From Pseudonocardiaceae bacterium (lineage in GTDB: Bacteria > Actinomycetota > Actinomycetes > Mycobacteriales > Pseudonocardiaceae), in assembly GCA_025924655.1 (NCBI GenBank), contig JAICHZ010000001.1, forward strand, positions 1-42,630: a DNA stretch of 42,630 bases, read 5' to 3'. The notes under the pieces are model-generated. The model was not told the origin of the DNA. It was given only the letters and a program-made list of their open reading frames with translations, and made no database searches. A program made the position numbers and the translations under genes. This document shows, piece by piece, positions 22,300 through 37,916 of the stretch (its first letter is position 1; each line of letters starts with the position of its first letter).

Positions 22300-23279
22300 T
22301 CCCACCGCGGTTCCCACTCGCGGTGCTGCCTACGCCGCTGGTGCGGGCACACCGGCTGGAGGCGGTGCTGGGACGGGGCCGGGTGCAGCTCAAGCGCGAC
22401 GACCTGGCCGGGTTCGCAGTCGGCGGCAATAAGACCCGGCCGCTGGAGTACCTGCTGGGACAGGCCCTGGCCGACCGGTGCGACGTGCTGGTCACCGGCG
22501 GCGGCCCCGGCTCGAACTTCTGCCCGGCCGCCGCCGTGGCCGCCCGTGCCGCAGGCTTGGACTGCGAGCTGATCATCTGTGGCGACAACGACCGGGGCGA
22601 CGGGTACGGCTCAGCCAACCTGGCCATCGCGGCGGCTGCCGGCGCCTGCATCCGGCCAACCGGTGACCAGGCGCGCGAGGCCTTGGACGCCGCGATCGCC
22701 GAGCGCGCCGCCGACCTGACCGCGGCCGGCCGGCGGCCGTTCCCGGTGCCGCGCGGGGGGTCCACCCTGCTGGGCGCGGTGGGGTTCGCGGTCGCGGCGG
22801 CCGAGTTGGCGGGTCAGCTCGACCAGTCTGAGCTAGCGGGCGGCGCCGAACCCGCGCTGGTGGTACTGCCCGTCGGCTCCGGTAGCAGCTGCGCCGGGCT
22901 GCTGGCCGCCGGGCCGCCGTGGCCGGTGCTGGGGGTATCGGTCAGCCGGCCACTGCAGGAGATCACCAGCAAGGTGCACGCGCTGGCGCAGGCGTGCGCC
23001 CGGCTGCTGGGCTATCCGCCACCCCGCCCGAGGGGGCTGGAGATCGTTGACGCCCGCGGGCCCGGCTTCGGTATCGCGTCTCAGGCCGACCGGGCCGCCG
23101 CGTGCCTGGCGCTGCACACCGAAGGCCTACTGCTCGACGACACCTACGGCGCCAAGGCGTTCGCGGTGCTGACTCAGCGGGCCGGCGACGTCCGGGGACC
23201 CGTGGTGTTCTGGCACACCGGCGGTGTGGTGCCGGCCGTGGCCGCGCTGCGCCAGCGGATATCGGGAGGACGGATGTGA
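22296..23279 (+). CDS. PLP-dependent enzyme of the D-cysteine desulfhydrase / ACC deaminase family
   Basis: An ATGA overlap links it to the upstream stop. LPTPLVRAH, KRDDLAGFAVGGNKTRPLEYL (PLP lysine), PRGGSTLLGAVGF, LPVGSGSS, LLLDDTYGAKAF and FWHTGG align along E. coli DcyD as I remember it. Confidence 0.85.
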   Translation: MIPPRFPLAVLPTPLVRAHRLEAVLGRGRVQLKRDDLAGFAVGGNKTRPLEYLLGQALADRCDVLVTGGGPGSNFCPAAAVAARAAGLDCELIICGDNDRGDGYGSANLAIAAAAGACIRPTGDQAREALDAAIAERAADLTAAGRRPFPVPRGGSTLLGAVGFAVAAAELAGQLDQSELAGGAEPALVVLPVGSGSSCAGLLAAGPPWPVLGVSVSRPLQEITSKVHALAQACARLLGYPPPRPRGLEIVDARGPGFGIASQADRAAACLALHTEGLLLDDTYGAKAFAVLTQRAGDVRGPVVFWHTGGVVPAVAALRQRISGGRM

Positions 23280-24793
23280 CGCCAAGACGCGAGGAGGGGC
23301 CGCCGCAGACCGGGGCGGCGCGTGAGCTGGTGGAGTCCGGCTTCACACTGGAAAACGCGGACGCCTCATTCCTGCACCGCGGCCTGAACCTGGCCGACCT
23401 GGCGCACGTGTTGGACCTGGCCCGGCGCGGCATCGTGCCGGTGCCGGCTCAGCGCGAGCTGCTGGCGTTGCTGCTCGAGGTGTACGAGGTCCCCGCTGAC
23501 GAGTTCCCCTACGACCCCTCCTACGGCGAGCCGTACAACTCCCGCGAGCACTACTTCGTTTCCCGGATCGGCGACGTCGCAGGGTGGTTGCATGCCGGGC
23601 GGCCGCGGCGGGAGGCGGCTCGGATCGCGCTGCGGCTGCACCTGCGCCGCCAGCTCGTCGAGCTGGTCGCCGAGGCTGCCGCCTTCGCCCGGGTGGCCGT
23701 CGACCGGGCTGACGAGCACATCGAAACCGTGATGCCCGACCAGACTTACCTGCAGCAGGCCCAACCCTCGACGTTCGGGCACTACCTGCTGTCCTTTGTG
23801 TACTCGACGCTGCGGGATGCCCGCCGACTACTCGAGGAGCTCGACTGGGTGGACTGCAGCCCGGGCGGCGCTGGCTGCGTCAACGGCACCCGGCTGCTCT
23901 CTGACCGCAGCTTCATCGCCGACGCGCTGGGGTTCCGTGGAGTGATCGAGCACACCCGCGACGCGATGTGGCAGATCGACGGCCTGATCCACGTACTGGC
24001 CACCGCGGCCAGCCTGCTGTCCGGGTTCAGCAAATTGGCTGAAGACCTGGAGATCTGGTCGAGCAGCGAGTTCGACTTCGTTGATCTGGCAGACGCCTAC
24101 ACTCGGGCCAGCGTGCTCATGCCGCAGAAACGCAACCCGTACTCGCTGGCCATCGTCCGCGGTGCCTCCGGGATCGTCATCGGGCGGCTGGCCGGGTTCC
24201 TCGCGGTGGCCAAGAGCCCATCTGCTCGCAGCGACAACCTGATTTTCGCCTACGGTGAGGTGCCGCGGGCGCTCGACTTGTGCCTGCGGATCACCCGGTT
24301 GATCACTGGGGTGGTGCGCACGATGCGGGTCAACGCCGAGCGGATGGCCGAGCAGCTGCGCGCCGGCTACACCCAGTCCACCGACCTCGCCGAGCACCTG
24401 GTGCAGGTCTGCGCAGTGGACTACCGCACCGCTTACGTCGTCGTCGGACGCACTGTGCGGGCGGCCAGCCGGGCCGGGATCCCCGGCATGAAGATCACCG
24501 GCGAGATGCTCGACGACGCCGCCCGCGAGCACACCGGACGATCCTGGGGACTGGCCGGGATGGACCTGTCCGAGGTGCTCGACCCCTGGCAGATAGTGCT
24601 TTCCCGGCATGCCCAGGGCGGTGCCGCGCCAACGGCAGTGCACCGCATGACAGGGAACTTACGAAGGTCGCTGGACGAACTGGACGCCACGGTCAGCGAG
24701 CGGGCCGCGGCCCACGACCGCGCCGAGAGTTCGCTGCTGGCGGCGGCCAAGGCAGTGGTTGAGCAGGACGGTCAGCAGGAGGGTGCACCGTGA
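23276..24793 (+). CDS. fumarate-lyase-superfamily enzyme, argininosuccinate-lyase-like
   Basis: A GTGA overlap links it to the upstream stop. The signature loop is SVLMPQKRNPYSLA, and MPDQTYLQQAQPSTFGHYL is ArgH-like. Confidence 0.85.
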   Translation: MTPRREEGPPQTGAARELVESGFTLENADASFLHRGLNLADLAHVLDLARRGIVPVPAQRELLALLLEVYEVPADEFPYDPSYGEPYNSREHYFVSRIGDVAGWLHAGRPRREAARIALRLHLRRQLVELVAEAAAFARVAVDRADEHIETVMPDQTYLQQAQPSTFGHYLLSFVYSTLRDARRLLEELDWVDCSPGGAGCVNGTRLLSDRSFIADALGFRGVIEHTRDAMWQIDGLIHVLATAASLLSGFSKLAEDLEIWSSSEFDFVDLADAYTRASVLMPQKRNPYSLAIVRGASGIVIGRLAGFLAVAKSPSARSDNLIFAYGEVPRALDLCLRITRLITGVVRTMRVNAERMAEQLRAGYTQSTDLAEHLVQVCAVDYRTAYVVVGRTVRAASRAGIPGMKITGEMLDDAAREHTGRSWGLAGMDLSEVLDPWQIVLSRHAQGGAAPTAVHRMTGNLRRSLDELDATVSERAAAHDRAESSLLAAAKAVVEQDGQQEGAP

Positions 24794-26193
24794 GCGTGTT
24801 GCCGGAGCAGATCAGGGCGGTCAACATCGGGTTGCCGATGTTCGCCGATGCCCTTCGGGCGCAGGGCGTGGCGGTGGAGCATGTCGACTGGCGGATCCCT
24901 GCCGGTGGCGACCTGGCCGCGGTGGCCACGCTGAGCCGGCTCTACGGGGATCATGGGAGCGCTATCGACGGAGCCAACGCCGAGGTGGTGCGGCGGCTGG
25001 ACTCCGGCGTGCCGCAGCTTGTCGAGGTGTCCACGGTGGCGCAGGCCGTGCCCGCAATGGTGGGTCGCACCCTGCTGCACTGCGGCCCGGCGATCGACTT
25101 CGGGCAGGTGTGCGACCCGCTGCGCCGCTCGATGCGGGCCGCCGTGGTCGCCGAGGGCTGGGCGGCTGACGTCGAGGAGGCGCAGCGGTTGCTGGCCAGC
25201 GGCGATGTGGCGCTGGAGCCGGCCAACCACCACCAGGCGGTGGTACCGATGGCCAGCGCGATCGGCCCGACTGCACCGGTCTTCGTGGTGGCTGACCGCG
25301 AGGGCGGCACCCGGTCCTACGCGCCGGTCAACCAGGGCCCCGGCGAGGTGGCCTGGTTCGGCCGGGACACTGACGCGGCGGTCGAAAGGTTGAGGTTCCT
25401 GCGCGATGTCGCCGGTCCGGCGCTGACCCGGGTCCTGAGCTCGGCCGGCCCACTAGACATCCTCAGCTTGGCCGCACAGGGCGTCGCGATGGGCGACGAC
25501 CTGCACATGCGCACCCAAGCGGCGACCAACCTGCTTGTCCGAACGTGGCTGCCCCAACTCGCTGAGCTGCCGGACCAGCAGCGCGGCGGGATGGCCCGCT
25601 TCCTGTCCGGCAACCACCTCTTCTTCCTCACGCTGGCGATGGCCGCAGCCAAGGCGCTCACTCTCTGGGCCGAGGAGGTGAGCGGGTCAAGCGTCATCAC
25701 GACCATGTCCCGCAACGGGACCACGTTCGGGATCAAGCTTGCGGGCTCGCCGGAGTGGCACATCACCGCTGCCCCGCCCATCACTGACGCGTTGTACTAC
25801 TCCGGCTACGGGCCCGAGGACGCCGCCCCGGATATCGGCGACTCCGCCGTGCTGGAGCTGGTAGGACTGGGTGGACCGGCGGCCGCCGGCTCGCCAGCCG
25901 TGGCGGCGTTCCTCGGTGGCTCGATGGCCGACGGCAAGCGGGCCACCGAGGCGTTCCGGCAGATATGCGTCGGCACCAGCAGCCGCTTCACGTTGCCTCC
26001 GTTGGACTTCAGCGGCACGCCGGTCGGCGTGGACGTGCGGCGGGTGGTGGAGCTGGGGATCACCCCGCAGATCACCACCGGTATCCTGCACTGCTCCTTG
26101 GGCGTCGGACAGATTGGCGCCGGGGTGGCCACCGCGCCGCTGGAGTGTTTCACCGAGGCGCTGGCCGCCCTGGACGCTCGCCTGGTGCGGTGA
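24790..26193 (+). CDS. DUF1116 protein (YlbE/AllG-like, oxamate carbamoyltransferase subunit family)
   Basis: A GTGA overlap links it to the upstream stop. LLHCGPAIDF, LEPANHHQAVVPMASAIGPTAPVFVV and NQGPGEVAWFG resemble the YlbE/DUF1116 family. Confidence 0.8.
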   Translation: MSVLPEQIRAVNIGLPMFADALRAQGVAVEHVDWRIPAGGDLAAVATLSRLYGDHGSAIDGANAEVVRRLDSGVPQLVEVSTVAQAVPAMVGRTLLHCGPAIDFGQVCDPLRRSMRAAVVAEGWAADVEEAQRLLASGDVALEPANHHQAVVPMASAIGPTAPVFVVADREGGTRSYAPVNQGPGEVAWFGRDTDAAVERLRFLRDVAGPALTRVLSSAGPLDILSLAAQGVAMGDDLHMRTQAATNLLVRTWLPQLAELPDQQRGGMARFLSGNHLFFLTLAMAAAKALTLWAEEVSGSSVITTMSRNGTTFGIKLAGSPEWHITAAPPITDALYYSGYGPEDAAPDIGDSAVLELVGLGGPAAAGSPAVAAFLGGSMADGKRATEAFRQICVGTSSRFTLPPLDFSGTPVGVDVRRVVELGITPQITTGILHCSLGVGQIGAGVATAPLECFTEALAALDARLVR

Positions 26194-26927
26194 GGGCACT
26201 CGACGTCGGCCTCGGGGCCCGGAAGGTGCTCGGCGATCTCGCCGAGGGCCGGGTGGTCGCGGTCTACTCGCGGGCTGCCTACTTGCGGTTTCCGGCCGGA
26301 CTGTTAGCGGTGACGTCCGCGTGGGCGCCAGCCGGTCCGCTGAACCTGCGGTGCCCGGCGTTACCGGTACTGCGGCCGGGCGCTGCGGTGTGGACGGACG
26401 GTTCCCGGCTTTCGGGGCCAGGATGGGCGGTTGCACTAGAGGCACCGACCTGGGTGGGCGAGCTGCCCCCTCCCCCGACAGTTGCCCTGCCCTGCGCCGC
26501 CGCCGTGCCTGACCTGACTGGGCTGGCCGCACGTCTGGGCGGGCGCGGGCCGGGGCTTACCCCGGCCGGAGACGACGTGCTGGCCGGCGCGCTGCTTGCG
26601 GCACGGGCCCGCTGCGGGCCGGCGGCGGAACCCGAGTTATCCGCGGTTGCTGCCTCCGTACGCACCACCGACCCGGCCCTGGCGTTCCTGGCCTGGGCGG
26701 CCCGCGGTCAATGCATCGAACCAGCGCACACTGTGCTGCTGGCGATGACCCGCCGCGATGAGGCCCGGGCGCACGCTGCGGCGACCCGGCTGGTCACGAT
26801 CGGAGCCTCATCCGGTGCGGCGCTACTTGCCGGGTTGAGGCTCGGGCTGGGCGACCGGGATCAGCGGCCACGCAGGGAAAACCGGACCACCTGGGTCGGC
26901 CGACGCCCCGGGTTGGACCAGCGGTAG
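26190..26927 (+). CDS. DUF2877 protein (YlbF/AllH-like)
   Basis: A GTGA overlap links it to the DUF1116 stop. GRGPGLTPAGDDVLAGALLA matches the GxGxGLTPxGDD motif I associate with DUF2877, and IGASSGAALLAG lies near the C-terminus. The last ~25 aa overlap the convergent regulator and are probably read-through tail. Confidence 0.65.
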   Translation: MRALDVGLGARKVLGDLAEGRVVAVYSRAAYLRFPAGLLAVTSAWAPAGPLNLRCPALPVLRPGAAVWTDGSRLSGPGWAVALEAPTWVGELPPPPTVALPCAAAVPDLTGLAARLGGRGPGLTPAGDDVLAGALLAARARCGPAAEPELSAVAASVRTTDPALAFLAWAARGQCIEPAHTVLLAMTRRDEARAHAAATRLVTIGASSGAALLAGLRLGLGDRDQRPRRENRTTWVGRRPGLDQR

Positions 26928-27535
26928 CGGTGGTCGATCGGGTAGTGCAGAGCGTCGCCCCGGTGCAGTGTGTACTGCTCGCCGGCCACCTCAACGGCCA
27001 GCGTGCCGTCGAGCACGAGCAGCAGCTCCTCGCCCGGGTGCTGGGTGACCTCAGCGCCGGATTCGGCGCCCGGCGCCAGCGTTGCTATCTCCCCGGCGGT
27101 CCGGAAGCGCTCCCGGGGCCCGCCAATGCCGGCGAGCTCCACACCTGGAGCCGGTGCAGTCAGCGTCGGTCGCCCGGTGACTGGAGTGTGCGCGGCCACC
27201 TGCACGGGACCGGACGCAGCGTCGACGAAGTGTCCGATCGGACGGCCCAGCGCGGCAGCCAGCTTCAGCAGCGTGGTGATCGTCGGAACCATGTCGTTGC
27301 GCTCGACCTTGTGGATCGCGGCGGCTGACACGTCGGCGCGGCTCGCCAGCTGCTGCAGTGAAAGCCCAAGCTGCTGGCGCAGCTCATGAACCTTGGCGCC
27401 GATGGCGCCGACGATCGGCTCCCAATCCGGCACTGGGCCAACGCCCACTTGGCCGCCACGGTCACCCGCCAGCCCGTTGCGCTCCGGCCTGGCATCCGCG
27501 GAACCCGGGCCGCCTGTGGTCGCCGACCTGGCCAT
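26861..27535 (-). CDS. XRE-family HTH plus cupin-domain transcriptional regulator
   Basis: The HTH is LGLSLQQLASRADVSAAAIHKVERNDMVPTITTLLKLAAALG. The C-terminal cupin is HPGEELLLVLDGTLAVEVAGEQYTLHRGDALHY. The start is taken at Met9 (27535), which has AGGAGA 6 nt upstream. Met1 (27559) has no SD. Confidence 0.85.
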   Translation of the reverse strand: MARSATTGGPGSADARPERNGLAGDRGGQVGVGPVPDWEPIVGAIGAKVHELRQQLGLSLQQLASRADVSAAAIHKVERNDMVPTITTLLKLAAALGRPIGHFVDAASGPVQVAAHTPVTGRPTLTAPAPGVELAGIGGPRERFRTAGEIATLAPGAESGAEVTQHPGEELLLVLDGTLAVEVAGEQYTLHRGDALHYPIDHRYRWSNPGRRPTQVVRFSLRGR

Positions 27536-27546
27536 GAGTGATCTCC

Positions 27547-27574
27547 TTGACAGTGACATTGCGTTCAGTATGAT
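27547..27574 (+). promoter_or_regulatory. candidate sigma-70-like promoter for the flavoprotein/DsrE/nitrile-hydratase operon
   Basis: TTGACA (27547-27552), a 16-nt spacer, then TATGAT (27569-27574), about 75 nt upstream of GTG 27650. An imperfect palindrome overlaps it: GTGA.TGCGTT-N10-AACGCA.TCAC (27553-27587). Confidence 0.35.
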
Positions 27575-27649: not shown

Positions 27650-28993
27650 GTGCCGCGCAAGACGGTGATCATTGGTGGGGGGGCCGCTGGTCTGGGCGCC
27701 GCCGGTGGTGTGAAGGCGGCCGATCCTGGAGCCGACGTCGTCGTCTACACCGAATACGAGGATGTTGCTTACAGCCCCTGCGGCATCCCCTATGTGCACG
27801 GCAAGGAGATCCCCGACTTCGAGCGGCTGTTCCTGGCCGGCAAGCAGACCTACATCGACGCAGGCATCGATGTGCACTACAGCACCGCGGTCACCGCGCT
27901 GGACACCGCGCACAAGATGGTCACGGTTGTTGGCGAGGGTCGGGTCTCCTACGACACCGTGGTCGTGGCCACCGGCTTCAACTATGCCGATCCCGGGGTG
28001 CCGGGCGGCGACCTCGGGGGCCTGTACTACGTCAAGAATATTCGCCGGGCCATGGAGTGGGACAAGGTTCTCGACTCGGTGAAAAAGGCCGTCGTAGTCG
28101 ACGCCTCGCCGCTCGGGGTGGAGATGGTCACCGCGCTCGCCCAGCGCGGCATCGAGACTCACCTGGTTGACCCATACCCGTGGCCGCTGGCTGAGATGGT
28201 CGACCCGGACATCATGGCGCCGGTCGAGGAGTCGTGGGGCGAGCTAGGCGTCGTCGCGCACTACAACAGCACGTTGGAGGCTTTCCTCGGCGACCACAGC
28301 GGCCACGTCCGTGCGGTGCGGACCTCCGAAGGTGAGCTGGAAGCCGAGATCGTCGTGGTGTGCACACACAAGGAGCCGAACAACACCCTCGCCGCGAAGG
28401 CCGGCCTGAAGCTCGGCTCGACCGGCGGCGTGATCGTCGACGCACGGATGTCCACCTCGGCGCCCCACGTCTTCGCCGCCGGCGACTGCGTCGAGATCCC
28501 GCACGGGCTGACCCGGGTTCCACTGCAGGGGCTGACCGGCAGCCACGCTTACGCTCAGGGCAAGGTCGCTGGCGCCAACGCCGGCGGCGGTAACCGGGCT
28601 TACCGCGCGGTGTACGTGCCGTGGGGTACCCCGGCTGGCAAGTGGGTGATCGGGGGTGCCTCCTTCGGCGAGACCACTGCCACCGCGTTGGGCATCCCGT
28701 ACGTGGTGGGGACCGCTCAGGGCATTTCGAGGGCCCGGTACTACCCGGGCGTCAAGCCGGTCAAGGTCAAGCTGCTCGCCGAGCCGGGCAGCCTGCGGCT
28801 GATCGGCGCCCAGATGGTCGGCCAAGAGGGAATCAAAGAGCGAGCCGACTTCCTCGCGATGGCGGTTAAGTTCGGCTTCACCCTGGGCGACCTTGCGACG
28901 ATGGAGAACGTCTACTCGCCGGCGATCGGGGCGCTCAACGAGCCCATCGTCCTGGCCGCACAGAAGGCCCTCGACTCACTCAAGAAGCGCTGA
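27650..28993 (+). CDS. pyridine-nucleotide-disulfide oxidoreductase of the CoA-disulfide reductase / NADH oxidase type
   Basis: It has an N-terminal GGGAAG Rossmann motif and a single redox Cys in YSPCGIPY. A second dinucleotide fold (KKAVVVDASPLGVEM) and FAAGDC follow. The C-terminal dimerisation region is LIGAQMVGQEGIKERADFLAMAV. Confidence 0.85.
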   Translation: MPRKTVIIGGGAAGLGAAGGVKAADPGADVVVYTEYEDVAYSPCGIPYVHGKEIPDFERLFLAGKQTYIDAGIDVHYSTAVTALDTAHKMVTVVGEGRVSYDTVVVATGFNYADPGVPGGDLGGLYYVKNIRRAMEWDKVLDSVKKAVVVDASPLGVEMVTALAQRGIETHLVDPYPWPLAEMVDPDIMAPVEESWGELGVVAHYNSTLEAFLGDHSGHVRAVRTSEGELEAEIVVVCTHKEPNNTLAAKAGLKLGSTGGVIVDARMSTSAPHVFAAGDCVEIPHGLTRVPLQGLTGSHAYAQGKVAGANAGGGNRAYRAVYVPWGTPAGKWVIGGASFGETTATALGIPYVVGTAQGISRARYYPGVKPVKVKLLAEPGSLRLIGAQMVGQEGIKERADFLAMAVKFGFTLGDLATMENVYSPAIGALNEPIVLAAQKALDSLKKR

Positions 28994-28994
28994 C

Positions 28995-29252
28995 ATGTCG
29001 TTTTTCCAGTGGCTACGCCGCAACTCCGAGCATTACCTGATGATCGCGGCGCACGAGCAACTGGCGCAGCAGTACTCCGGGCGGGCCCCGCGCCCGCCGC
29101 GCGGCCTCAAGGAGTTGTTCTGGCTGCGTCTGTTCGTCCCCATTTACCGGGCACTGCCCTGGCTGGTGCGGCAGCGGATCATGCAGTCCATGCCGGGCAG
29201 TCACCGCCAACAATGGGCGCCGCCTCCCCGGACGCAGAACCCGGCGGTGTGA
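28995..29252 (+). CDS. small hypothetical protein (85 aa)
   Basis: Its ATG lies 1 nt after the flavoprotein stop. [27 protein letters not shown]...[18 protein letters not shown] has one amphipathic or hydrophobic stretch. I recognise no family. Confidence 0.5.
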
Positions 29253-29286: not shown

Positions 29287-29790
29287 ATGAAAGGAAGTCT
29301 CCCGGTGGCACAGATCGTGGGTGAAAGGGTTAGCAAGGGCGACGCGATCGTCGACTACGAGGAAAAAGTATTCGAGGACATTCAGGCCGAGCCGGGCGAG
29401 AAGGCGTACATCCTCATGCACACAGTGCCATTCGAGGGCTCGGTAGGTCTGGTCAATATGCTGACGGCGACCCGGATCAACCGCAAGGGGTTCGACACGC
29501 ATCTGGTGCTTTACGGCCCGGGATCACTGATGGCGGCGGCTACCCGCGGCTATCCGAAGGTCGGCGATGAGCCGTTCCCCGGTGCGCTGAGCTATAACAA
29601 GCAGCTGCAGACGTTCATGAACGAGGGCGGGCACGTCTACGCCTGCCGGTTCTCGGCCGCCGCGCTCTACGGCATGCGCGAGATCGACATGATGGAGGGC
29701 GTGAAGCCGATCAACCCGCTCGATGTCCTGGATTCGGTGCTGACGGCCCGCCGGCAGAATGCGCTGATCATGCAGACTTGGACCGTCTGA
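29287..29790 (+). CDS. DsrE/DsrF-fold protein, plausibly MSMEG_0572/Sll0783 (NitB) family
   Basis: The protein has 167 aa. [40 protein letters not shown] and [16 protein letters not shown] give a DsrE-like pattern with a conserved Cys. An alternative start is GTG 29305, with AAGGAAG upstream. The family assignment is from memory only. Confidence 0.65.
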
Positions 29791-29793
29791 ACC

Positions 29794-29839
29794 CTCGTGA
29801 GTGCGTAACAGTGTCAGGACACTGTTACGCACTCACGAG
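29794..29839. repeat. perfect 46-bp palindrome (22-bp arms, 2-nt centre) between the DsrE-like gene and the nitrile hydratase genes
   Basis: CTCGTGAGTGCGTAACAGTGTC-AG-GACACTGTTACGCACTCACGAG. I verified that the arms are exact reverse complements. It starts 4 nt after the upstream stop and ends 18 nt before the nthB GTG, with no T-tract after it. Confidence 0.9.
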
Positions 29840-29857
29840 CACCGGAGGTGCATCATC

Positions 29858-30523
29858 GTGAACCGGATCGCGGACCTGGGCGGCACCGAAGGCTGGGGCC
29901 GGGTCAAGACGCCGACCGCGGACGAACCTGTCTTCGCGCAGGAGTGGGAAGGTCGGGCGTTCGCGTTGGCCTTGCTGTCAATGGGTCGGGTGTCCGGCCG
30001 CAACCTTGACGCGTTCCGGCACGCGCTGGAACGCCTGGGGCGCCCCGAATACTTCGACACCTACTACGGGCGGTGGCTGCATGCGGCCGAGCTGATGCTC
30101 GTCGAGAGCGCAATTCTCGCCCCCGGCGCGGTGGAGGCTCGGGCCCGCAAGCTGCGCGGTGAGGACGTCGATGAGCCACCGGTGCCCGAGCCGAACAAGC
30201 CTGATTACGCGCCGACCGCCGCGGGCTCGCTGCGCACCGTGGAGGACGCACCGCGTTTCGCCGTCGGTGAGCGGGTGCGCGCCAAAGACCTGGAGCCGAA
30301 AGGCCACACCCGGTTACCGCACTACCTGCGCGGGCATTGCGGCACCATAGAGATGATCCAGCCCGCGGCGCTGCTGCCGGACACCCACGCCCACTTCCTC
30401 GGCGAAAACGCGCAACATGTCTACACCGTGCGTTTCGACTCCCGCGAGCTGTGGGGAGCCGATGCCCAGCCCTTCGCGCTGAGCAGCGAGCTGTACGAGA
30501 GCTACCTGGAGCCCGTGTCATGA
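29858..30523 (+). CDS. nthB: nitrile hydratase beta subunit
   Basis: The start is taken at GTG 29858, with GGAGG 9 nt upstream. [14 protein letters not shown] matches the MDGIHDLGG-type N-terminus, along with [27 protein letters not shown] and VYTVRF. Confidence 0.9.
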
Positions 30524-31116
30524 GTGAGACGACCCCTGCCGACCGGCTGCCGATCGAGCTGCGTACCGAGGCGCTGGAGCAGCTGCTCACCGAGCGCGGG
30601 CTGGTCGACCCGTCGGTGATGGACAAGTTCATCCAGACTTACGAGACATCGGTCGGGCCGATGAACGGCGCCAAGGTGATCGCCAAGGCGTGGACCGACC
30701 CGGACTACCGCGAGCGACTACTCGCTGACGGCACTGCTGCGATTGCCGAGCTCGGCTTTAAGGGGCCGCAGGGCGAGCACATCGTGGTCGTAGAAAACAC
30801 CCCGCAGCGGCACAACGTGATCGTCTGCACGTTGTGCTCGTGCTACCCGTGGCCGGTGCTGGGGCTGCCGCCGAGCTGGTACAAGGACCCGGCTTACCGC
30901 GCCCGGGTGGTGCGCGAGCCGCGGGTGGTGCTGGCCGAGATGGGTCTCGAGCTGCCCGCCGACACCGAGATCGTGGTCCGGGACTCCAGCTCCGAGGTGC
31001 GCTGGCTGGTGCTGCCGGAGCAGCCAGCAGGCACCGAGGACCTGTCTGAGCAGGAGCTGGCCGGACTGGTCACCCGCGACGCCATGGTGGGCGTGGCGAA
31101 GGTCAAGGCGCCATGA
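30520..31116 (+). CDS. nthA: nitrile hydratase alpha subunit, cobalt type
   Basis: An ATGA overlap links it to the beta stop. The metal site [21 protein letters not shown] has Thr and Tyr in the Co-type positions. Confidence 0.95.
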
Positions 31117-31457
31117 CGGCGGCCGCGCCGCTGGAGATCGACGGTTCCGCCGCACCGCCGCGCAGCAATGGCGAGCTGGTCTTCGCCGAGCCGTGGGAGA
31201 GCCGGGCGTTCGGCCTGGCCGTCACCCTCTACGACGCCGGCGCCTTCGAATGGGCGCAGTTCCAGGCCGCGCTGGTCGCACAGATTGCTGCGTGGGAACG
31301 TGCGCACCCGTCGGGGGAGTGCTTCAGCTACTACCGCTGCTGGCTCGGCGCGCTGGAGTCGGTGCTCGTGGACGCCGGGATGGTCGGCCCGAACGACGTT
31401 GTCGAGCGCGCCACCGCCCTCGCTAGCCGTCCCCCCGACCACGACCACGACCGCTGA
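31113..31457 (+). CDS. nitrile hydratase accessory (activator / metallochaperone) protein
   Basis: An ATGA overlap links it to the alpha stop. The 114-aa protein has a beta-subunit-like N-terminus ([16 protein letters not shown]), as in NhlE/P14K-type activators. Confidence 0.8.
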
Positions 31458-31856
31458 AGCAGGCGGACCTTGGCCCAGCTGACTTTCTTCCCCCGGTCCG
31501 CTACAGCTACGTTCGGTTATGACAAGCTGCGGCACGTTCGCTCCGCCAAGGGACAGGATGAAGCCAACTTCAATGGCACCAAGTTCAGCCTGCCCAATGT
31601 GCATCCACGAAGTCGCCGTGCCCGTGGAGCTAGCCGACGGCACACCACCGCCGTGACCCGGGCCGCGAATGCTACCCGGCCGCCGACTACCGCACCGAGA
31701 CGCAGCCCGCGAGATGACCTCGATCATCGACTGACAGGGGTTGATCTCTGAGGGTCGGGCTGCGGTCCGATCGCGATGTCCTCAAACGTGCCTCACCCAA
31801 CCGCCACGTCACCTACCAACCCGGCTGCCGCCTCTGCGGTCCGAGGCGAAGCCTCG

Positions 31857-33080
31857 TTAGAAAACGGTCGTTCGCTGCCGAGCGCGCCTCCAAGCCCGCA
31901 CCTCTGCGTAGACCTTCAGGTGCCGCCGGGCGCTCGCTTCCCAGGTGAACCGCGGCAGGAGGGTTCGGCCGCCGGCCCGCAGCCGCTCCCGCAATCCCGG
32001 GTCGGTAACCAGTTCGCGCATCGCGCCAGCCAGGCTCGCGGCGTCGGCAACCCTGGGCAGAAGCGCGTCTACGTGGTCGGTGAGGTACTCCCGGAAGACC
32101 GGCAGGTCGGTGGCGATCACCGGCAGGTCTTGGCTCATCGCTTCCAGCACCGCGAGTCCCCAGCCCTCCTTGACCGACGGAAAGGCCAGCGCGTCGGCGC
32201 TCTGGTACCACCCGGCGAGCTCCGCGTCATCGACGGTGCCGAGCAGCACCACGTCGCGCCCGAGCGCGAGCCCGAGCCCGGGCAGCGAGTCCAGCGCAGC
32301 GTCCCGGTAGGCGGCGTAGTCCTGAAAGGAATGCCCGCCAACAATCGCCAGCACCGCGGGCGTGGTCAGCTCCCGCCGCAGCCGTCCCAGCGCCTCGAAG
32401 AGGTACACGCTGCCCTTACGCGGCTCCACGCCGCCGACAGCGAGGAACAGAAACGTGCGCTCGTCGGTGATCCCGATCCGGGCCCGCAGCTCGGCGCGCG
32501 AAGCCGGCGGTATTCGCGAGAAGCGCTCAAGGTCCACCCCGTTGGGCACGACCACCGGCTCGACGCCGTAGTCCGCGCGCAGGATCCGGCGCCACTGCTC
32601 GCTGACCACGAGCACCTGGTCGGGCTCCAGGATCGCCTCGCGCTGGCAGGTGATCAGCACCGGGGTGGTGAAGTCATCGACGTGATGCACCGTGCGCACC
32701 ACCGATACGGGTGCCCCCGCGTCACGCACCCGGGCCGCCGCCCGGGCCGCGATGCAGTCCTGCGCGTGCAGGATGTCGGCTCGAACGGTGGAACCGTCGA
32801 TCCGGCGCTCGACGGTGGAACCGTCGTCGACCAGCCTGGCGAGCCCGTCGGTCAGCACGTCGATCGATGCGAATACCCGCTCCTCGAGCGAGCCGCTCTT
32901 GGCTGGCGCTGGAAGCACAGTGTGCGGTACCGCTGTCGGTCGGAATAACCCCACTGCGGGATCTCCCAACGCGATCAGGTGTACGGGGTGGCCCTGCCGG
33001 TGCAGCTCCTCGGCCAAGCCCATCGTGTGCACCAGGCCACCGCGCGGCTTGGTCGAGTGGGTAACGAGCGCGACTGTCAT
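31857..33080 (-). CDS. GT4-family glycosyltransferase, plausibly MSMEG_0565 family
   Basis: The N-terminus is MTVALVTHSTKPRGGLVHTMGLAEEL. The C-terminal GT-B motif is PSVKEGWGLAVLEAMSQDLPVIATD. An ATGA overlap links it to the upstream fdrA-like stop. Confidence 0.85.
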   Translation of the reverse strand: MTVALVTHSTKPRGGLVHTMGLAEELHRQGHPVHLIALGDPAVGLFRPTAVPHTVLPAPAKSGSLEERVFASIDVLTDGLARLVDDGSTVERRIDGSTVRADILHAQDCIAARAAARVRDAGAPVSVVRTVHHVDDFTTPVLITCQREAILEPDQVLVVSEQWRRILRADYGVEPVVVPNGVDLERFSRIPPASRAELRARIGITDERTFLFLAVGGVEPRKGSVYLFEALGRLRRELTTPAVLAIVGGHSFQDYAAYRDAALDSLPGLGLALGRDVVLLGTVDDAELAGWYQSADALAFPSVKEGWGLAVLEAMSQDLPVIATDLPVFREYLTDHVDALLPRVADAASLAGAMRELVTDPGLRERLRAGGRTLLPRFTWEASARRHLKVYAEVRAWRRARQRTTVF

Positions 33081-34645
33081 AGCTGGGTCTGGGAAAGCTC
33101 GGGGTCACGGCTGACGATCGCAGCGGCGGCCAGCGAGGCTCGGGCTGCGGTCTCGGTGACCACACAGCCGGCGTCGATGAAGGCCTGGCGTTGCGCGTCG
33201 AAGCCCTGCGGGTCGGCTTCGGTGCCGAGCACGTAGACGACGATCACGGGACCGCCGTTCGCGGTGATCTCGGCGCATACCGGCGCCAGCTCACCAGCCG
33301 GGTCGTCGTGCGCGCCGTAGCCGAGCACGACATCCAGGATGACTACGGCGACGTCCGGGTCGGTGCCCTGTTCGCGAAGCAGCGCGATGCGCGCCTCGGG
33401 ATCGATCATCGGGTGCGGCCGTCCCTTGGTGTACTCCTCCTCGCCGAGGTCGAGGCAGGTGTGACTGCCTGCCGGCGCCGGCAGCCCGAAGGCGGAATCC
33501 AGCGGAGTGTTGGAGTACACCGGCCCGAGGTGCCCAGGGAGATACCGGGAGAGGATGACCAGCGACTCGTAGCACAGCGTGCCGCCGGAGAACAGCCCGC
33601 GGATCAGCCGCCGCTGCTCGGGTAGCTCCGCGATCGCGGCTGCCACCCGCTCGCGCAGCCCGACTGCCGGGTTGGGCGGTTGCCGGCCCAGTGCGGCCAG
33701 CGTCGCGATCACCCCGGACTCCAAGGTGTCGGCGACCGTGACCCCGTCCGGCACCTCCATCCCGCACGGCAGGCCGAGCAGCGCGGCGATGACCAGTTTG
33801 TCGCCGCCGGCGGCCGGCAGCACTGCGCGGACCACCTCGGGCGAGGGCGGCTTGGACACCAGCAGCACCACCTCGGTGCGCTCGTCATGGGCCAGCGCCC
33901 GCAGCGCCGAGCGCGCCATCAGGCCACCCACGTCCGACGAGAGGTCTCTGCCACCGAGGCCGATGACGTGCGAGACGCCGACGCCCCAGCGGTCCAGCAG
34001 ACTCATCGCCTCCTGCGCGCCGGTGCCGGCGGCAGCGACCACGGCCACTGGGCCCGGCGTGGTGACGTTGGCGAAACCCAGGCAGGTGCCGCCGAGCATC
34101 GCGGTGCCCGCTCCGGGGCCCATGACCAGCCGGCCCAGCCGCTCGGCGCGTTGTTTGAGCGCCACTTCGGCGGCCAGCGAGACATTGTCGCTGAACAACA
34201 GCACGTCCAGGCCGGCCGACAGGGCCTTGTGCGCCTCCAGCGCTGCGTAGTCGCCGGGAACCGAGACCACTGCGATGTTGCTGTCCGGCGCCCGGTCCAG
34301 CGCGTCGCGCAGGGTTCTCGGCGACTGCTCGGTCCCAGAGCTGTCGCCGGACTTGCCGCCAGCGCCGCGGCTGTCGAAGATGCTGGCCCGGCCGGCCTCC
34401 TCAGCCTCCCCGGCGACCTCTTCAGCGGAAGCGCGCACCGCAATGACCAGATCGTTGGAGCTGCCGCCGGACCAGTCCTGCGGGTTGAAACCCTGCTCGG
34501 TGAGAGTGTCGAGGTTCGCCGGCGTGGCCATCGCGGCGGTGGCCCACTCGACGCCGTCAACGGCGCGCATCGCCCGGGTGCCGGCGAGCTGCACCACCGA
34601 GTCGACGTAGGTATCGCGGAACAGTCGGACCCTGGTGATGCTCAT
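33077..34645 (-). CDS. fdrA: FdrA-family protein (succinyl-CoA-synthetase-alpha-like; AllF-type)
   Basis: MSITRVRLFRDTYVDSVVQLAGTRAM and AMATPANLDTL resemble the FdrA N-terminus. CoA-ligase-like Gly-rich segments follow (VMGPGAGTAMLGG, VVAAAGTGAQE). An ATGA overlap links it to the carbamate kinase stop. Confidence 0.85.
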   Translation of the reverse strand: MSITRVRLFRDTYVDSVVQLAGTRAMRAVDGVEWATAAMATPANLDTLTEQGFNPQDWSGGSSNDLVIAVRASAEEVAGEAEEAGRASIFDSRGAGGKSGDSSGTEQSPRTLRDALDRAPDSNIAVVSVPGDYAALEAHKALSAGLDVLLFSDNVSLAAEVALKQRAERLGRLVMGPGAGTAMLGGTCLGFANVTTPGPVAVVAAAGTGAQEAMSLLDRWGVGVSHVIGLGGRDLSSDVGGLMARSALRALAHDERTEVVLLVSKPPSPEVVRAVLPAAGGDKLVIAALLGLPCGMEVPDGVTVADTLESGVIATLAALGRQPPNPAVGLRERVAAAIAELPEQRRLIRGLFSGGTLCYESLVILSRYLPGHLGPVYSNTPLDSAFGLPAPAGSHTCLDLGEEEYTKGRPHPMIDPEARIALLREQGTDPDVAVVILDVVLGYGAHDDPAGELAPVCAEITANGGPVIVVYVLGTEADPQGFDAQRQAFIDAGCVVTETAARASLAAAAIVSRDPELSQTQL

Positions 34646-35616
34646 GACACGGCTCCAAGCGAAGTGGAGGCGGCGACGATGCGGGTGCCCACCGCGGCAC
34701 CGCCGGGGGCCGGGTCGAGCGAGCGGGCGGCACGTTCGGAGTTGGTGATCACAGCGGTGCGACCGCCCGCCCGGACGAACTCGATCGCGGCTCGAACCTT
34801 GGGTCCCATGCTGCCGTCCGGGAACTGGTCGTCCTCAAGGTGGAGCTGTGCCTCGTCGGCGGTCATGGCGGTAATCGGGCGGGCGTCCGGGGTGCCGTAG
34901 TCAAGCATCACCTGCTCCACGTCCGTGACCATGACCAGCGCGTCGACGCCCAGCGCAGTGGCCAGCCGCTGGGCGGCAAGATCTTTGTCCACGACGGCGT
35001 CCACGCCGCGGTAGGCGTGCCCGTCTTCGACCACCGGCACCCCTCCGCCACCAGCCGCCACTACCAGCGCACCACGCTCGACCAGTGCGGTGATCACCTC
35101 GAGCTCGAGGAATCGCAGCGGGCGCGGCGAGGCGACCATCCGGCGGTAGCCCCGTTCGGCGTCCGGGGCCACTGTCCAGTTCCGCTCAGCGGCCAGCCGC
35201 CGCGCCTCCTCCTCACCAAAAAACGGCCCGATCGGTTTCGTGGGGTGAACGAAGGCCGGGTCGTCGGCCGCAACCACGACATGGGTCACCACGCTCACCA
35301 CGGCGGGCAGCCGTCCGCCGCAGGCGTCGTGCAGCGCCAGGGTGAGCAGGCTGCCCAGTTGGCCCTCAGTCATCGCGCCCAGGCAGAACAGTGGTTGCAC
35401 CGGCACGGTCTCGCGTGCCGCGTCCTGCTGGATGGACAGGCAGCCGACCTGCGGCCCGTTGCCGTGCACCACGATGACCCTCCACCCGGCGTCACGCAGC
35501 GCGCATACGGTGTGCGCCATCGCTCGGGCATTGGCCGCCTGCTCGGCGTGCGTGCCGGCTTGGTCGACCCGGGTGATCGCGTTACCGCCCAGGGCGACGA
35601 CGGCGGTTCGGGGCAT
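34642..35616 (-). CDS. arcC: carbamate kinase
   Basis: VVALGGNAI, VVHGNGPQVG, VVAAGGGGVPV and a VVDKDLAAQ-type motif are present. The start is taken at Met10 (35616), with GGGAG 10 nt upstream. An alternative start is 35643. Confidence 0.9.
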   Translation of the reverse strand: MPRTAVVALGGNAITRVDQAGTHAEQAANARAMAHTVCALRDAGWRVIVVHGNGPQVGCLSIQQDAARETVPVQPLFCLGAMTEGQLGSLLTLALHDACGGRLPAVVSVVTHVVVAADDPAFVHPTKPIGPFFGEEEARRLAAERNWTVAPDAERGYRRMVASPRPLRFLELEVITALVERGALVVAAGGGGVPVVEDGHAYRGVDAVVDKDLAAQRLATALGVDALVMVTDVEQVMLDYGTPDARPITAMTADEAQLHLEDDQFPDGSMGPKVRAAIEFVRAGGRTAVITNSERAARSLDPAPGGAAVGTRIVAASTSLGAVS

Positions 35617-35660
35617 CTGGTTCGCGCTCCCGTCGATATGCATTATGAGAAGCGACGTAC

Positions 35661-35710: not shown

Positions 35711-36340
35711 TTGACCGGACTGGACGCGGAGCGGGACGACGCCCTGCGCCGGGCACGGGCCCGGTGGCGGGCCGCCGAGGACCGACTGTTCCCGGTGGTG
35801 CTCGTCGACCCGGACACCTACCGGCGGGCGTTGTATGTCGTGGGCCTGCTTCTCGAGCAGCTGCGGGCGAATACCACTTCTCTCGACCAGCTGCTCGGCT
35901 TGGACGTCGACCCTGCGCCGTTGCTCTCGACACTGCCGGCCGGCTCCGTGTGTGACGACGGGGACCGGCTGACGCTGGAGGCGGCGTTTGCGGTACGGGA
36001 CAGGGAGCTCGCAGCGGCCGCTAAGCGCGGCCAACGAGCTGCGGCCATCGCGTTGGCGCACGCCGCCGGCGCGACCTGGGTGGACCTCGAGGGATCTTGG
36101 GAAGCTGTCCTGAGCACCGGGGGGCGGCACACCGAGATGCATTTGCCCACCGCCCGGGCGTTGGTCGCCACGATCGATCCCTACTCCGGAGATGGCCCGC
36201 ACCGGCTGGAGCTGGTCGTGCTGGACGGCGACACCGGCACACCAGTCGAGACGACCGACCGCGACCGGGCCTTTGCTGACCGGGCGGAGTGGCTGGCGCA
36301 GCGGCAGCGGTGGCGCGCGGATATCGAGGAAGGTAGGTAG
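35711..36340 (+). CDS. hypothetical protein leading the radical SAM / GNAT operon
   Basis: This 209-aa ORF has a TTG start and ends 2 nt before the radical SAM ATG. I recognise no motif. Confidence 0.6.
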   Translation: MTGLDAERDDALRRARARWRAAEDRLFPVVLVDPDTYRRALYVVGLLLEQLRANTTSLDQLLGLDVDPAPLLSTLPAGSVCDDGDRLTLEAAFAVRDRELAAAAKRGQRAAAIALAHAAGATWVDLEGSWEAVLSTGGRHTEMHLPTARALVATIDPYSGDGPHRLELVVLDGDTGTPVETTDRDRAFADRAEWLAQRQRWRADIEEGR

Positions 36341-36342
36341 AT

Positions 36343-37446
36343 ATGACCGGTCCAGCCGCGGTCGCTTCGTTAATCATGGATTTGCAGAGCCTCGGGCTGC
36401 GGGTGGAGGCGCCCATCGAGATTCGCCGCGGCGGAGCGGGTCCCACGGACTCTGGAATGCTGTGGATCGAGGGCGTGCCGGTCACCGTCCCCAGCCAGCC
36501 CGAGTCCCCCTACGTGCTCAAGGCTGAGGACGACGGACACGGCATCTACCGTGATGGGCGCAAGATGGCTTCGGCCGCCGCCAGCCGCCGGCCCCGGTTC
36601 TACGACCTGACCACAGCCGATGGCATTCCCTACTGGAAGATCGCGCTGCTGCACCTGGACTCGCTGGCCAGCACTGTTGTGCAGACGTGCAACTACTGGG
36701 GTAACTCCGACCAGTGCGGGTTCTGCGGTATCGGGCTGTCGCTGGGCGCTGGGCGCACGATTGTGAAGAAAACCCCGGCCCAGCTCGCCGAGGTGGCAGT
36801 CGCCGCTCGGAACCTCGATGGGGCGGTGGACGTCACCCTGACCACCGGCAGCTCAGCCGCCCCGGACCGTGGTGCGCGCTACGTCGCGCAGTGCGGGCAC
36901 GCGGTCAAGCAGGCCTCTGGGCTGCCCGTCCAGGTGCAGTTCGAGCCGCCACGCGACCTTGCGGTGCTTCAGGAAGTCGCCGACCTGGGCATCGACGCGG
37001 TGGGCATCCACGTCGAGTCCTTCGATCCCGAAGTGCTGGCCACGGTGGCACCAGGCAAGGCGCGCACCGGCATCGAGACCTACTTCCGCACCTGGGAGCG
37101 GGCGGTGGCACTGTTCGGTGCGGGCCGGGTGTCCACCTACGTCATCCTCGGCATGGGCGAGGATCCCGAGGTCACCGTCGAGGGGTGCCGGCGCGCCATC
37201 GACATCGGCGTTTACCCGTTCGTTGTCCCACTGCGGCCGGTGGCGGGCAGTCTGATGGCCGACGTGCCAGCGCCGGTCCGCACCTACACCGAGCCGATCT
37301 ACCGCAAGGTCGCCGCACACCTGGCGCTGCGTGGGATGAGCGCCGACGACGCCGGCGCCGGTTGTGCCCGCTGCCAGGCCTGCTCGGCGATGAACACCGT
37401 GCAGCCGCTGCTGCAGATCGGCCGCCGGCCAGAGGAGACCGCATGA
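36343..37446 (+). CDS. radical SAM protein, plausibly MSMEG_0568 family
   Basis: The Cys triad CNYWGNSDQCGFCG (36688-36726) is followed by a TIM-barrel-like pattern (VDVTLTTG, IDAVGIHVESFD, YVILGMGE). It is translationally coupled to the downstream GNAT, as in Nit1C-type clusters. Confidence 0.8.
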   Translation: MTGPAAVASLIMDLQSLGLRVEAPIEIRRGGAGPTDSGMLWIEGVPVTVPSQPESPYVLKAEDDGHGIYRDGRKMASAAASRRPRFYDLTTADGIPYWKIALLHLDSLASTVVQTCNYWGNSDQCGFCGIGLSLGAGRTIVKKTPAQLAEVAVAARNLDGAVDVTLTTGSSAAPDRGARYVAQCGHAVKQASGLPVQVQFEPPRDLAVLQEVADLGIDAVGIHVESFDPEVLATVAPGKARTGIETYFRTWERAVALFGAGRVSTYVILGMGEDPEVTVEGCRRAIDIGVYPFVVPLRPVAGSLMADVPAPVRTYTEPIYRKVAAHLALRGMSADDAGAGCARCQACSAMNTVQPLLQIGRRPEETA

Positions 37447-37916
37447 CCCCACTGCGGCCGTCGGCCGACCTGCTGTCCTGCCGGCTGGTTGCCGGGCCGG
37501 ACGAGCTGGCGCGCCACCACTGGATCCGGCACGAGACATTCGTCCGCGAGCAGCAGGTGTTCGCCGGGTCCGATGTGGACGCCCACGATGCTCGCGAGGA
37601 CGTGATGCATGTGGTCGGCTACTGCGGGGGGGTGCCGGCTGGCACCGTACGGCTCTACCCGCTCGACGAATCCGGGCGCACCTGGCAGGGTGACCGGCTC
37701 GCCGTGCTGCCGGAGTTCCGGCACGTCGGGCTGGGCGCGCCGCTGGTGCGCTTCGCGGTGGCCACCGCCGGCCGGCTGGGCGGGGTCTCGATGCACGCGC
37801 ACGTGCAAGTCGCCAATGAGCGGTTCTTCACCCGGCTCGGCTGGATCCGGCAAGGCGACGTCGAACTCTACGTCGGTCGGCCGCACCTACTCATGACCAT
37901 CGCCCTGGCCTCTTGA
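37443..37916 (+). CDS. GNAT N-acetyltransferase, plausibly MSMEG_0567/Sll0786 family
   Basis: An ATGA overlap links it to the radical SAM stop. The GNAT core is GDRLAVLPEFRHVGLGAPLVRFAV...ANERFFTRLGW. Confidence 0.85.
   Translation: MTPLRPSADLLSCRLVAGPDELARHHWIRHETFVREQQVFAGSDVDAHDAREDVMHVVGYCGGVPAGTVRLYPLDESGRTWQGDRLAVLPEFRHVGLGAPLVRFAVATAGRLGGVSMHAHVQVANERFFTRLGWIRQGDVELYVGRPHLLMTIALAS

Follow-up and report, generated by a model that had tools for sequence, protein, structure and literature searches.

In canonical Nit1C gene clusters, the gene for a small protein of the MSMEG_0572/Sll0783 (NitB) family, hereafter 0572, is followed directly by a nitrilase gene. In the 42,630-nucleotide stretch of a Pseudonocardiaceae genome analysed here (contig JAICHZ010000001.1; hereafter the window), 0572 is followed directly by the genes of a cobalt-type nitrile hydratase (NHase), nthB and nthA, and of its accessory protein. 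The question is whether this NHase has replaced the nitrilase, as was proposed in an earlier interpretation made from the DNA alone (the sequence-only reading), or occupies the position for another reason. The explanation that we rate highest, at about an even chance, is that a facultative NHase cassette has been functionally recruited to an actinobacterial cluster that contains no nitrilase. This cluster is conserved and widespread, and in it the NHase lineage sits among Nit1C markers, a coenzyme M (CoM)-type thiol pathway (xcb genes) and a carbamoyl-transfer/carbamate-kinase module (AllF, AllG and AllH homologues plus a carbamate kinase). To our knowledge, the physiological substrates of NHases are largely unknown, and the same applies to the function of the Nit1C/sll0783/gpr family.

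The nitrile hydratase cassette

Family cutoffs throughout are the curated NCBIfam thresholds, and domain labels are taken from Pfam. All three genes downstream of 0572 encode proteins scoring above the cutoffs of their NHase families, and 0572 itself, which the sequence-only reading took for Sll0783/MSMEG_0572-like, exceeds the cutoff of TIGR04044 (Table 1). The VCTLCSCY metal site on which that reading based the cobalt type was located at residues 102-109 of NthA (DNA 30823-30846); the threonine in V-C-T-L-C-S-C marks a cobalt-type alpha subunit. Both subunits align over their full length with cobalt-type NHases of solved structure (for NthA, E-values of 1e-72 to 1e-90 in a PDB sequence search). 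In the alignment with the beta chain of Pseudomonas putida, the arginines of NLDAFRH and GHTRLP are conserved in NthB; these are the residues contacting the oxidised cysteines in cobalt-type enzymes.

The genes are joined by ATGA overlaps at the nthB/nthA and nthA/accessory junctions. The start of nthB is most likely the GTG at 29858, with GGAGG 8 nt upstream, because the alignment with PDB beta chains sets in only at residue 21 of the open reading frame (ORF) that the sequence-only reading began at 29801, but at residue 2 of the 221-aa form, and the segment 29801-29857 falls within a hairpin. Identification as a thiocyanate hydrolase was rejected, the gamma model giving only 189 bits against a cutoff of 291. 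No amidase gene adjoins the NHase genes in the window. As judged by its sequence, nthB-nthA-accessory is with high confidence a bona fide, self-contained cobalt-type NHase cassette and an ordinary member of its family.

Two motifs, at approximately residues 49-76 of NthB, recur in nearly all beta subunits of the cluster lineage: NLDAFRHAL, which reads NLHAFRH in type C loci (defined below), and YYGRW, in place of which the P. putida NHase has YYEHW. The additional arginine, close to the tryptophan of the substrate pocket, could be of importance if the substrate is anionic.

Distribution among related loci

The survey comprised the 80 closest 0572 homologues and seven NHase homologues, with gene presence judged by tblastn thresholds. 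The 80 loci came from a scan with the 0572 protein of one genome per GTDB species; all belong to Actinomycetota, with 83-100% identity. Three cluster architectures bear the cassette. In type A, to which the window belongs, it follows 0572; in type C it follows 0572 and faces AllG and the xcb genes; in type E, where 0572, xcb and the pyridine-nucleotide-disulfide oxidoreductase gene (PyrRdx) are missing, it follows AllG or AllH by 19-69 nt. Wherever a locus contains both 0572 and NHase, nthB lies 14-94 nt after 0572 (32/32 loci, window included), and this adjacency is not due to chance. The NHase is facultative in the cluster.

Enzyme content was scored in the 61 loci, mostly GTDB species representatives and including the window, in which the sequence extends 4 kb or more upstream of 0572 and 2.5 kb or more downstream. 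NHase alone was found in 25/61 loci (nthBA after 0572) and an Amidohydro_2 (PF04909) gene alone in 33/61; neither enzyme is present in 3/61, namely two loci of one Pseudonocardia species (L001 and L002) and L084, and no locus has both (0/61). In many NHase-free loci the PF04909 gene stands directly after 0572 or about 3.2 kb upstream, beside the XRE regulator gene. Trees were built by neighbour-joining from two proteins each. Parsimony on the tree of PyrRdx and 0572 requires about seven state changes (6-9 in 30 bootstraps), and NHase and PF04909 loci are interleaved within the type C clade.

The PF04909 gene (examples are L047 10510-11370, L049 6651-7451 and L089 8984-9871) is a cluster member in most NHase-free species and exists in two divergent forms about 50% identical to each other. 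The protein received no NCBIfam name, and a PDB sequence search returned no relative.

The NHase alpha subunits of the clusters are 69-96% identical to that of the window, except in L082. In this metagenome-assembled genome, nthA (11294-11755) appears as two overlapping match pieces, 50% identical overall, and may be disrupted or affected by an assembly error. The tree of alpha and beta subunits agrees with the clades of the clusters, and the stand-alone copies branch from within the cluster-borne ones. No linkage of 0572 and nthA was found in Proteobacteria, where two plasmids contain both genes more than 30 kb apart.

Clusters and copies without 0572

Outside the loci with 0572, the closest NHase alpha subunits belong to other Pseudonocardia species, with identities of 80-86%. 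Seven NHase homologues were inspected; four lie in the type E sister cluster and three stand alone. The type E gene set comprises AIR synthase-like (AIRS), radical SAM, AllG(-AllH), glycosyltransferase, AllF, carbamate kinase, BTAD regulator and GNAT genes, and in L089 nthB begins only 19 nt after AllH. The NHase seems linked to AllG, AllH, AllF and carbamate kinase no less closely than to 0572, and probably more so.

The AT-rich spacers between AllG and nthB in this 0572-less variant (L087 7273-7335, L088 7268-7335, L093 9277-9335) appear, by eye, to share the motif ACTAT..GT.AAA...CATCGT, which may be a candidate NHase promoter or operator. The NHase cluster of Pseudonocardia alaniniphila has as neighbours (L093 466-6131) the genes of a branched-chain-type ABC transporter, of a Peripla_BP_6 binding protein and of an ANTAR response regulator, an arrangement that resembles an AmiC/AmiR amide-sensing system.

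The hairpin after 0572

A perfect inverted repeat (Table 1) lies 3' of the 0572 stop codon and 5' of the ribosome-binding site of nthB; its folding energy is -43.2 kcal/mol (z = -7.5). In nearly all of the 80 actinobacterial loci, 0572 is followed by a hairpin of similar strength and different sequence, irrespective of which gene comes next (nthB, the amidohydrolase gene or a convergent glycosyltransferase gene). Such conservation of structure and not of sequence fits an RNA hairpin or terminator. The palindrome occurs once in the window, and its interpretation as a repeated operator was rejected. On three proteobacterial plasmids, the spacer between 0572 and the nitrilase gene is 6-70 nt, and a comparable hairpin is absent from the Klebsiella junction, the only canonical copy tested.

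The hairpin is probably a terminator without a U-tract, or a 3'-stabiliser, of the unit formed by PyrRdx, a small ORF and 0572. NHase expression would then rely on read-through or on signals of its own, and the coupling of NHase with 0572 looks looser than that of the canonical nitrilase.

Role of the cassette

At the cobalt centre formed by Cys-Thr-Leu-Cys-Ser-Cys, the predicted NHase, matured by its accessory protein, would hydrate R-C≡N to R-CONH2. The host cluster is predicted to join Nit1C-type markers, the CoM-type Xcb thiol pathway with a CoA-disulfide-reductase (CoADR)-like enzyme, and the AllFGH-like carbamoyltransferase with carbamate kinase. We infer that the carbamoyltransferase/carbamate-kinase side probably receives from the NHase an intermediate of amide or carbamoyl type, or a salvaged nitrile, and that the PF04909 metal-dependent hydrolase may fill that role in sister lineages. 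A pathway handling a nitrile or an amide is possible.

Several points weigh against a functional recruitment. The existence of clusters with neither enzyme (L001/L002 and L084) indicates that the NHase is dispensable for the cluster. We know of no PF04909 enzyme that hydrates nitriles, so the chemistries of the two alternating enzymes may not be equivalent. The exclusion is not strict, since the type E locus L089 has both genes side by side, and the naive Fisher p-value (4e-14) overstates independence, given the phylogenetic relatedness of the loci. The lineage also includes stand-alone copies, which occur next to an IS21 transposase gene on a Streptomyces plasmid and beside a TetR gene in Pseudonocardia sp. 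WMMC193. Finally, the strong hairpin between 0572 and nthB makes their co-transcription uncertain.

Some of these points are shared by the most serious competing explanation, to which we assign roughly half the weight of recruitment. According to it, the cassette is a mobile, self-sufficient nitrile-catabolic module that settled in a permissive gap between convergent units and has no functional tie to its neighbours. The presence of the cassette varies among close relatives, the stand-alone copies show that it can exist with a transposase or a TetR regulator of its own at its side, and in the window it is bounded by a hairpin resembling a terminator on one side and by the 3' end of a convergent gene on the other. 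Other genes also land in this gap, for example that of an EamA transporter, located between the accessory and glycosyltransferase genes in L004 and L076. Set against this, the cassette in all three architectures is always beside cluster genes, at the short type E distances from AllG or AllH among others; its phylogeny tracks the cluster clades, the stand-alone copies being nested inside; and it never occurs with PF04909 in the 61 loci despite the repeated switches. The codon composition is native: GC content at third codon positions is 0.84-0.89 in the cassette, equal to the rest of the cluster, which gives no compositional sign of recent horizontal acquisition in this genome, and no transposase or repeats flank the cassette in the window.

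In the window, the accessory gene is followed by about 400 nt of lower GC content (0.65; 31458-31856), apparently non-coding, before the convergent glycosyltransferase gene. Terminal repeats and sequence similarity were looked for in this segment and not found. The same gap measures only 42-92 nt in the closest relatives L005, L009 and L011.

The missing nitrilase

According to the sequence-only reading, the NHase has replaced the Nit1C nitrilase non-orthologously, acts on the same nitrile intermediate and yields an amide instead of acid and ammonia. We judge this proposal unlikely and rank it below both functional recruitment and the module without ties. Both enzymes act on nitriles, and the position matches. 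On Klebsiella pneumoniae pK2044 the order is 0572, nitrilase, radical SAM (MSMEG_0568 family), GNAT (MSMEG_0567 family), sll0787-type AIRS, MSMEG_0570 and MSMEG_0569; the same order recurs on Caballeronia and Agrobacterium plasmids, so that the canonical succession of 0572 and nitrilase was confirmed on three proteobacterial plasmids in all. The retained markers also agree with replacement. Four Nit1C families score above threshold in the window (0572, the MSMEG_0568 radical SAM protein, the MSMEG_0567 GNAT protein and the MSMEG_0565 glycosyltransferase), and a fifth, the AIRS-like protein, scores below.

The reported absence of a nitrilase was confirmed over a wider range. The Nit6803-family nitrilase of pK2044, used as a tblastn query (E<=1e-3), had no match in the window or in 84 related actinobacterial loci, and among the plausible larger ORFs of the window no CN_hydrolase (PF00795) was recognised with Pfam or NCBIfam models. 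The same query found a 55%-identical nitrilase in Streptomyces (L091), which indicates a reasonable reach of the search. A nitrilase just outside the window, a circumstance that would have undone the proposal, was rejected, as none is present in relatives with 10-kb flanks; nor did the scan of the 80 other actinobacterial species reveal one at distances of up to about 10 kb from 0572. The edge of the type A cluster is the BTAD regulator gene, and the next gene in L001 encodes methylmalonyl-CoA mutase.

The comparative data do not show a replacement, a warning that a shared position need not mean a shared role. The sequence-only reading suggested a check for mutual exclusion of nitrilase and nthAB; no relative alternates them in otherwise similar clusters; the partner with which the NHase alternates is the PF04909 amidohydrolase. 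The nitrilase-free state is common to all 84 actinobacterial loci and to a Methylocystis plasmid cluster with the arrangement PyrRdx-small ORF-0572-AllG-glycosyltransferase and neither enzyme, and it is, as judged from gene content, ancestral to the whole actinobacterial cluster family. More than half of the clusters also have no NHase, so the cluster works without any nitrile enzyme. The NHase also persists in clusters that lost or never had 0572, kept there with the core of AllG, AllH, AllF, carbamate kinase, glycosyltransferase, radical SAM, AIRS and GNAT genes, which counts against replacement, as does the hairpin parting 0572 from nthB.

In addition, the two enzymes can be neighbours and so are not mutually exclusive. 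The linear plasmid of Streptomyces sp. NBC_01483 (L091 11338-16269) contains a stand-alone NHase cassette, with an alpha subunit 77.5% identical to that of the window, at 2.4 kb from a CN_hydrolase gene, the product of which is the nitrilase 55% identical to that of Klebsiella; no other cluster genes are present in this locus. Its nthB is split into two tblastn pieces, and a frameshift may be involved.

Homologues of MSMEG_0570 and MSMEG_0569 are missing from the window too, as neither had a tblastn match there, and their absence points to a different cluster type and not to a one-gene swap. By its gene content, then, the locus is neither a canonical Nit1C cluster nor a Nit1C cluster with one gene exchanged. 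It has the four marker families and, under the cutoff, a fifth, does not have three others (the nitrilase, MSMEG_0570 and MSMEG_0569) and contains two extra modules. Two proteins were considered as divergent forms of the missing families, and no support was found: PyrRdx as MSMEG_0569 (no tblastn match with the Klebsiella protein; TIGR04046 outside the 25 best NCBIfam matches, down to 37 bits) and the 209-aa hypothetical protein as MSMEG_0570 (no NCBIfam match at E<=1, no Pfam family).

The surrounding cluster

The NHase genes have a central place in a cluster about 23 kb long (18244-41094), between the hairpin ending the PyrRdx-small ORF-0572 unit and the 3' end of the convergent glycosyltransferase-AllF-carbamate kinase unit (Table 1).

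Table 1. Features of the cluster in the window, in order of position
Feature	Coordinates	Strand	Evidence
AIR-synthase-like protein, closest to sll0787 family	18244..19233	-	TIGR04049 251.9 vs cutoff 321.3
comA(xcbB)-xcbA-xcbD-xcbE-xcbC homologues, coenzyme-M-type pathway	19302..24793	+	XcbA model 339 vs 150
AllG (DUF1116) and AllH homologues, oxamate-carbamoyltransferase-like subunits	24790..26927	+	Pfam AllG 233 bits, AllH 75 bits
XRE-cupin regulator, PuuR-like, divergent from PyrRdx	26861..27559	-	HTH_3 and Cupin_2 in orthologue
PyrRdx, pyridine-nucleotide-disulfide oxidoreductase, CoA-disulfide-reductase-like	27650..28993	+	Pyr_redox_2 154 bits
Small conserved ORF (85 aa, MSFFQWL...)	28995..29252	+	tblastn; between PyrRdx and 0572 in nearly all loci
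0572, MSMEG_0572/Sll0783 (NitB) family protein, DsrE-like fold	29287..29790	+	TIGR04044 227.3 bits vs cutoff 109.85
Perfect 22-bp inverted repeat (20-bp stem as folded)	29794..29839	+	Between 0572 stop and nthB ribosome-binding site
nthB, nitrile hydratase beta subunit (221 aa)	29858..30523	+	TIGR03888 174.4 bits vs cutoff 152.2
nthA, cobalt-type nitrile hydratase alpha subunit (198 aa)	30520..31116	+	TIGR01323 304.5 vs 249.85
NHase accessory (activator) protein (114 aa)	31113..31457	+	TIGR03889 74.9 vs 46
MSMEG_0565-family glycosyltransferase, convergent with NHase genes	31857..33080	-	TIGR04047 355 vs 260
AllF/FdrA homologue and carbamate kinase	33077..35643	-	NF004760 407 vs 433; Ligase_CoA (Pfam)
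209-aa hypothetical protein, MSMEG_0568-family radical SAM, MSMEG_0567-family GNAT	35711..37916	+	Profile scans
BTAD/AAA/TPR (AfsR-type) regulator, cluster edge	37891..41094	-	Pfam; same position in type A and type E clusters

The start of 0572 is probably the GTG at 29305, giving 161 aa, which matches the length of homologues. A PDB sequence search with this protein returned nothing. The five best PDB matches of its AlphaFold model (predicted local distance difference test, pLDDT, 74), obtained with Foldseek, are DsrE/DsrF-like (E-values of 6e-6 to 7e-4), which makes the label "DsrE-like" reasonable.

PyrRdx is the first gene of the conserved PyrRdx-small ORF-0572 unit and is kept upstream of 0572 in nearly all loci; the triad is also present on the Methylocystis plasmid (L086). 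The best NCBIfam match of PyrRdx is CoADR (233 bits, under the cutoff), and its single-cysteine motif YSPCGIPY is of the CoA-disulfide-reductase/NADH-oxidase type. Pfam and NCBIfam searches assigned the 85-aa small ORF to no family. In the region of the divergent XRE-cupin regulator gene, a promoter-like site is located at 27547-27574.

The AIRS-like protein is 35% identical to the Klebsiella Nit1C AIRS and is encoded about 10 kb from 0572, on the opposite strand. Among the Xcb homologues only XcbA, which carries DUF7714, scores above its cutoff; XcbD (576 vs 600), XcbC (418 vs 575), XcbE (223 vs 450) and ComA (220 vs 280) remain below. The product of this operon could be CoM or a related sulfonate thiol. 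The xcb set is conserved together with Nit1C-type markers in many Actinomycetota, and no alkene or epoxide genes were found near it. AllF, AllG, AllH and carbamate kinase are part of the conserved cluster core; the carbamate kinase scores 344 against a cutoff of 358 with TIGR00746 (arcC) and 275.5 against 266 with NF009007. The radical SAM and GNAT proteins exceed their cutoffs (TIGR04043, 388.7 vs 303.7; TIGR04045, 95.3 vs 68.45).

Outside the cluster, the window contains two paralogous Methyltransf_19 (PF04672) genes in tandem, preceded by a gene for a cytochrome P450 (11903-15138 together) and followed by one for a PAS-GGDEF-EAL protein (15189-17354).

A nitrogen salvage route

An undescribed route of cyanide or nitrile nitrogen salvage via thiol-bound intermediates, which we consider highly improbable, would involve cyanylation of a CoM-like thiol made by Xcb enzymes, hydration of the S-cyano or N-cyano compound by the NHase to the S- or N-carbamoyl form, phosphorolysis by AllFGH to carbamoyl phosphate, and its conversion by carbamate kinase to NH3, CO2 and ATP. 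The cyano group might come from thiol-captured cyanide or from an N-cyano or nitrile metabolite, and PF04909 could be the alternative entry elsewhere. Thiocyanate hydrolase is a member of the NHase superfamily, and cyanide assimilation in Pseudomonas has been linked to canonical Nit1C. The scheme is the sole one that would give a role to xcb, the CoADR-like reductase, the DsrE-like 0572, NHase, AllFGH and carbamate kinase together. AllFGH and AllK perform such carbamoyl transfer in Escherichia coli (PMC11326118). Against it, the majority of these clusters have no NHase, those of type E combine NHase and AllFGH yet contain neither xcb nor 0572, the scores of the alpha subunit are those of a nitrile hydratase instead of a thiocyanate hydrolase, and the Xcb homologues fall under CoM-specific cutoffs.

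Significance

In full-text searches of open-access papers and preprints, no publication was found that connects NHase, xcb or AllFGH to Nit1C-type genes; both the alternation of NHase with PF04909 and this variant of the cluster appear undescribed. The near-perfect either/or of the two enzymes, with several independent switches, is a testable clue to a shared downstream step. If the salvage scheme were true, it would give the Nit1C/sll0783/gpr family a concrete chemistry, and an NHase a defined physiological substrate. The question is experimentally accessible, since the locus is present in culturable strains of Actinomycetospora and Pseudonocardia, among them Actinomycetospora cinnamomea DSM 45771, Pseudonocardia parietis DSM 45256, P. 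ammonioxydans and P. spinosispora.

Comparison with known systems

The cassette has the same beta-alpha-accessory gene order as the NHases of Pseudonocardia thermophila JCM 3095 (PDB 1IRE) and P. putida 5B (PDB 3QXE) and shares with these enzymes the VCTLCSC cobalt site and the beta-subunit arginines; E-values over the entire length are 1e-72 to 1e-80. The alpha subunit of the window is about 59% identical to that of P. thermophila and belongs to a separate, mostly cluster-embedded lineage; orthology with the P. thermophila enzyme was rejected on the grounds of this value against 69-96% inside the cluster lineage.

The MSMEG_0565-0572 genes form the gpr cluster (GlnR-dependent resistance to peroxide) of Mycobacterium smegmatis (PMC6039565). 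This cluster is likewise actinobacterial and has in common with the window the MSMEG_0565 glycosyltransferase, MSMEG_0567, MSMEG_0568 and MSMEG_0572 families; judged by family names alone, it includes MSMEG_0569 and MSMEG_0570, whereas the window has neither.

AllFGH of E. coli is a characterised oxamic transcarbamylase, which acts on an N-carbamoyl amide and is paired with the carbamate kinase AllK (PMC11326118). Homologues of all four genes are present in the window, split, unlike in E. coli, into AllG-AllH and AllF-carbamate kinase on opposite strands. There are no allantoin genes near them, and the AllF and arcC model scores are slightly under the cutoffs.

The xcbABCDE genes of Xanthobacter autotrophicus are responsible for bacterial coenzyme M biosynthesis (PMC9457059). 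The window has the full set of homologues in one operon (ComA/XcbB, XcbA, XcbD, XcbE, XcbC), which, unlike the X. autotrophicus genes, is linked to Nit1C-type and AllFGH genes and not to alkene or epoxide genes.

The canonical Nit1C clusters (nitBCDEFGH of Pseudomonas pseudoalcaligenes, pK2044 and Synechocystis sll0783-0787) have in common with the window 0572/NitB, the radical SAM and GNAT genes and, in the window under the family cutoff, the AIRS-like gene, and, like them, the window has a nitrile-acting enzyme family directly 3' of 0572. Unlike them, it has no Nit6803 nitrilase, MSMEG_0570 or MSMEG_0569, and a hairpin that the Klebsiella copy does not have parts 0572 from the next gene. The canonical cluster is a single operon, whereas the markers of the window are scattered over 23 kb on both strands, and the window adds to the canonical set the xcb, AllFGH/carbamate kinase and CoADR-like genes, the small ORF, and the XRE and BTAD regulators.

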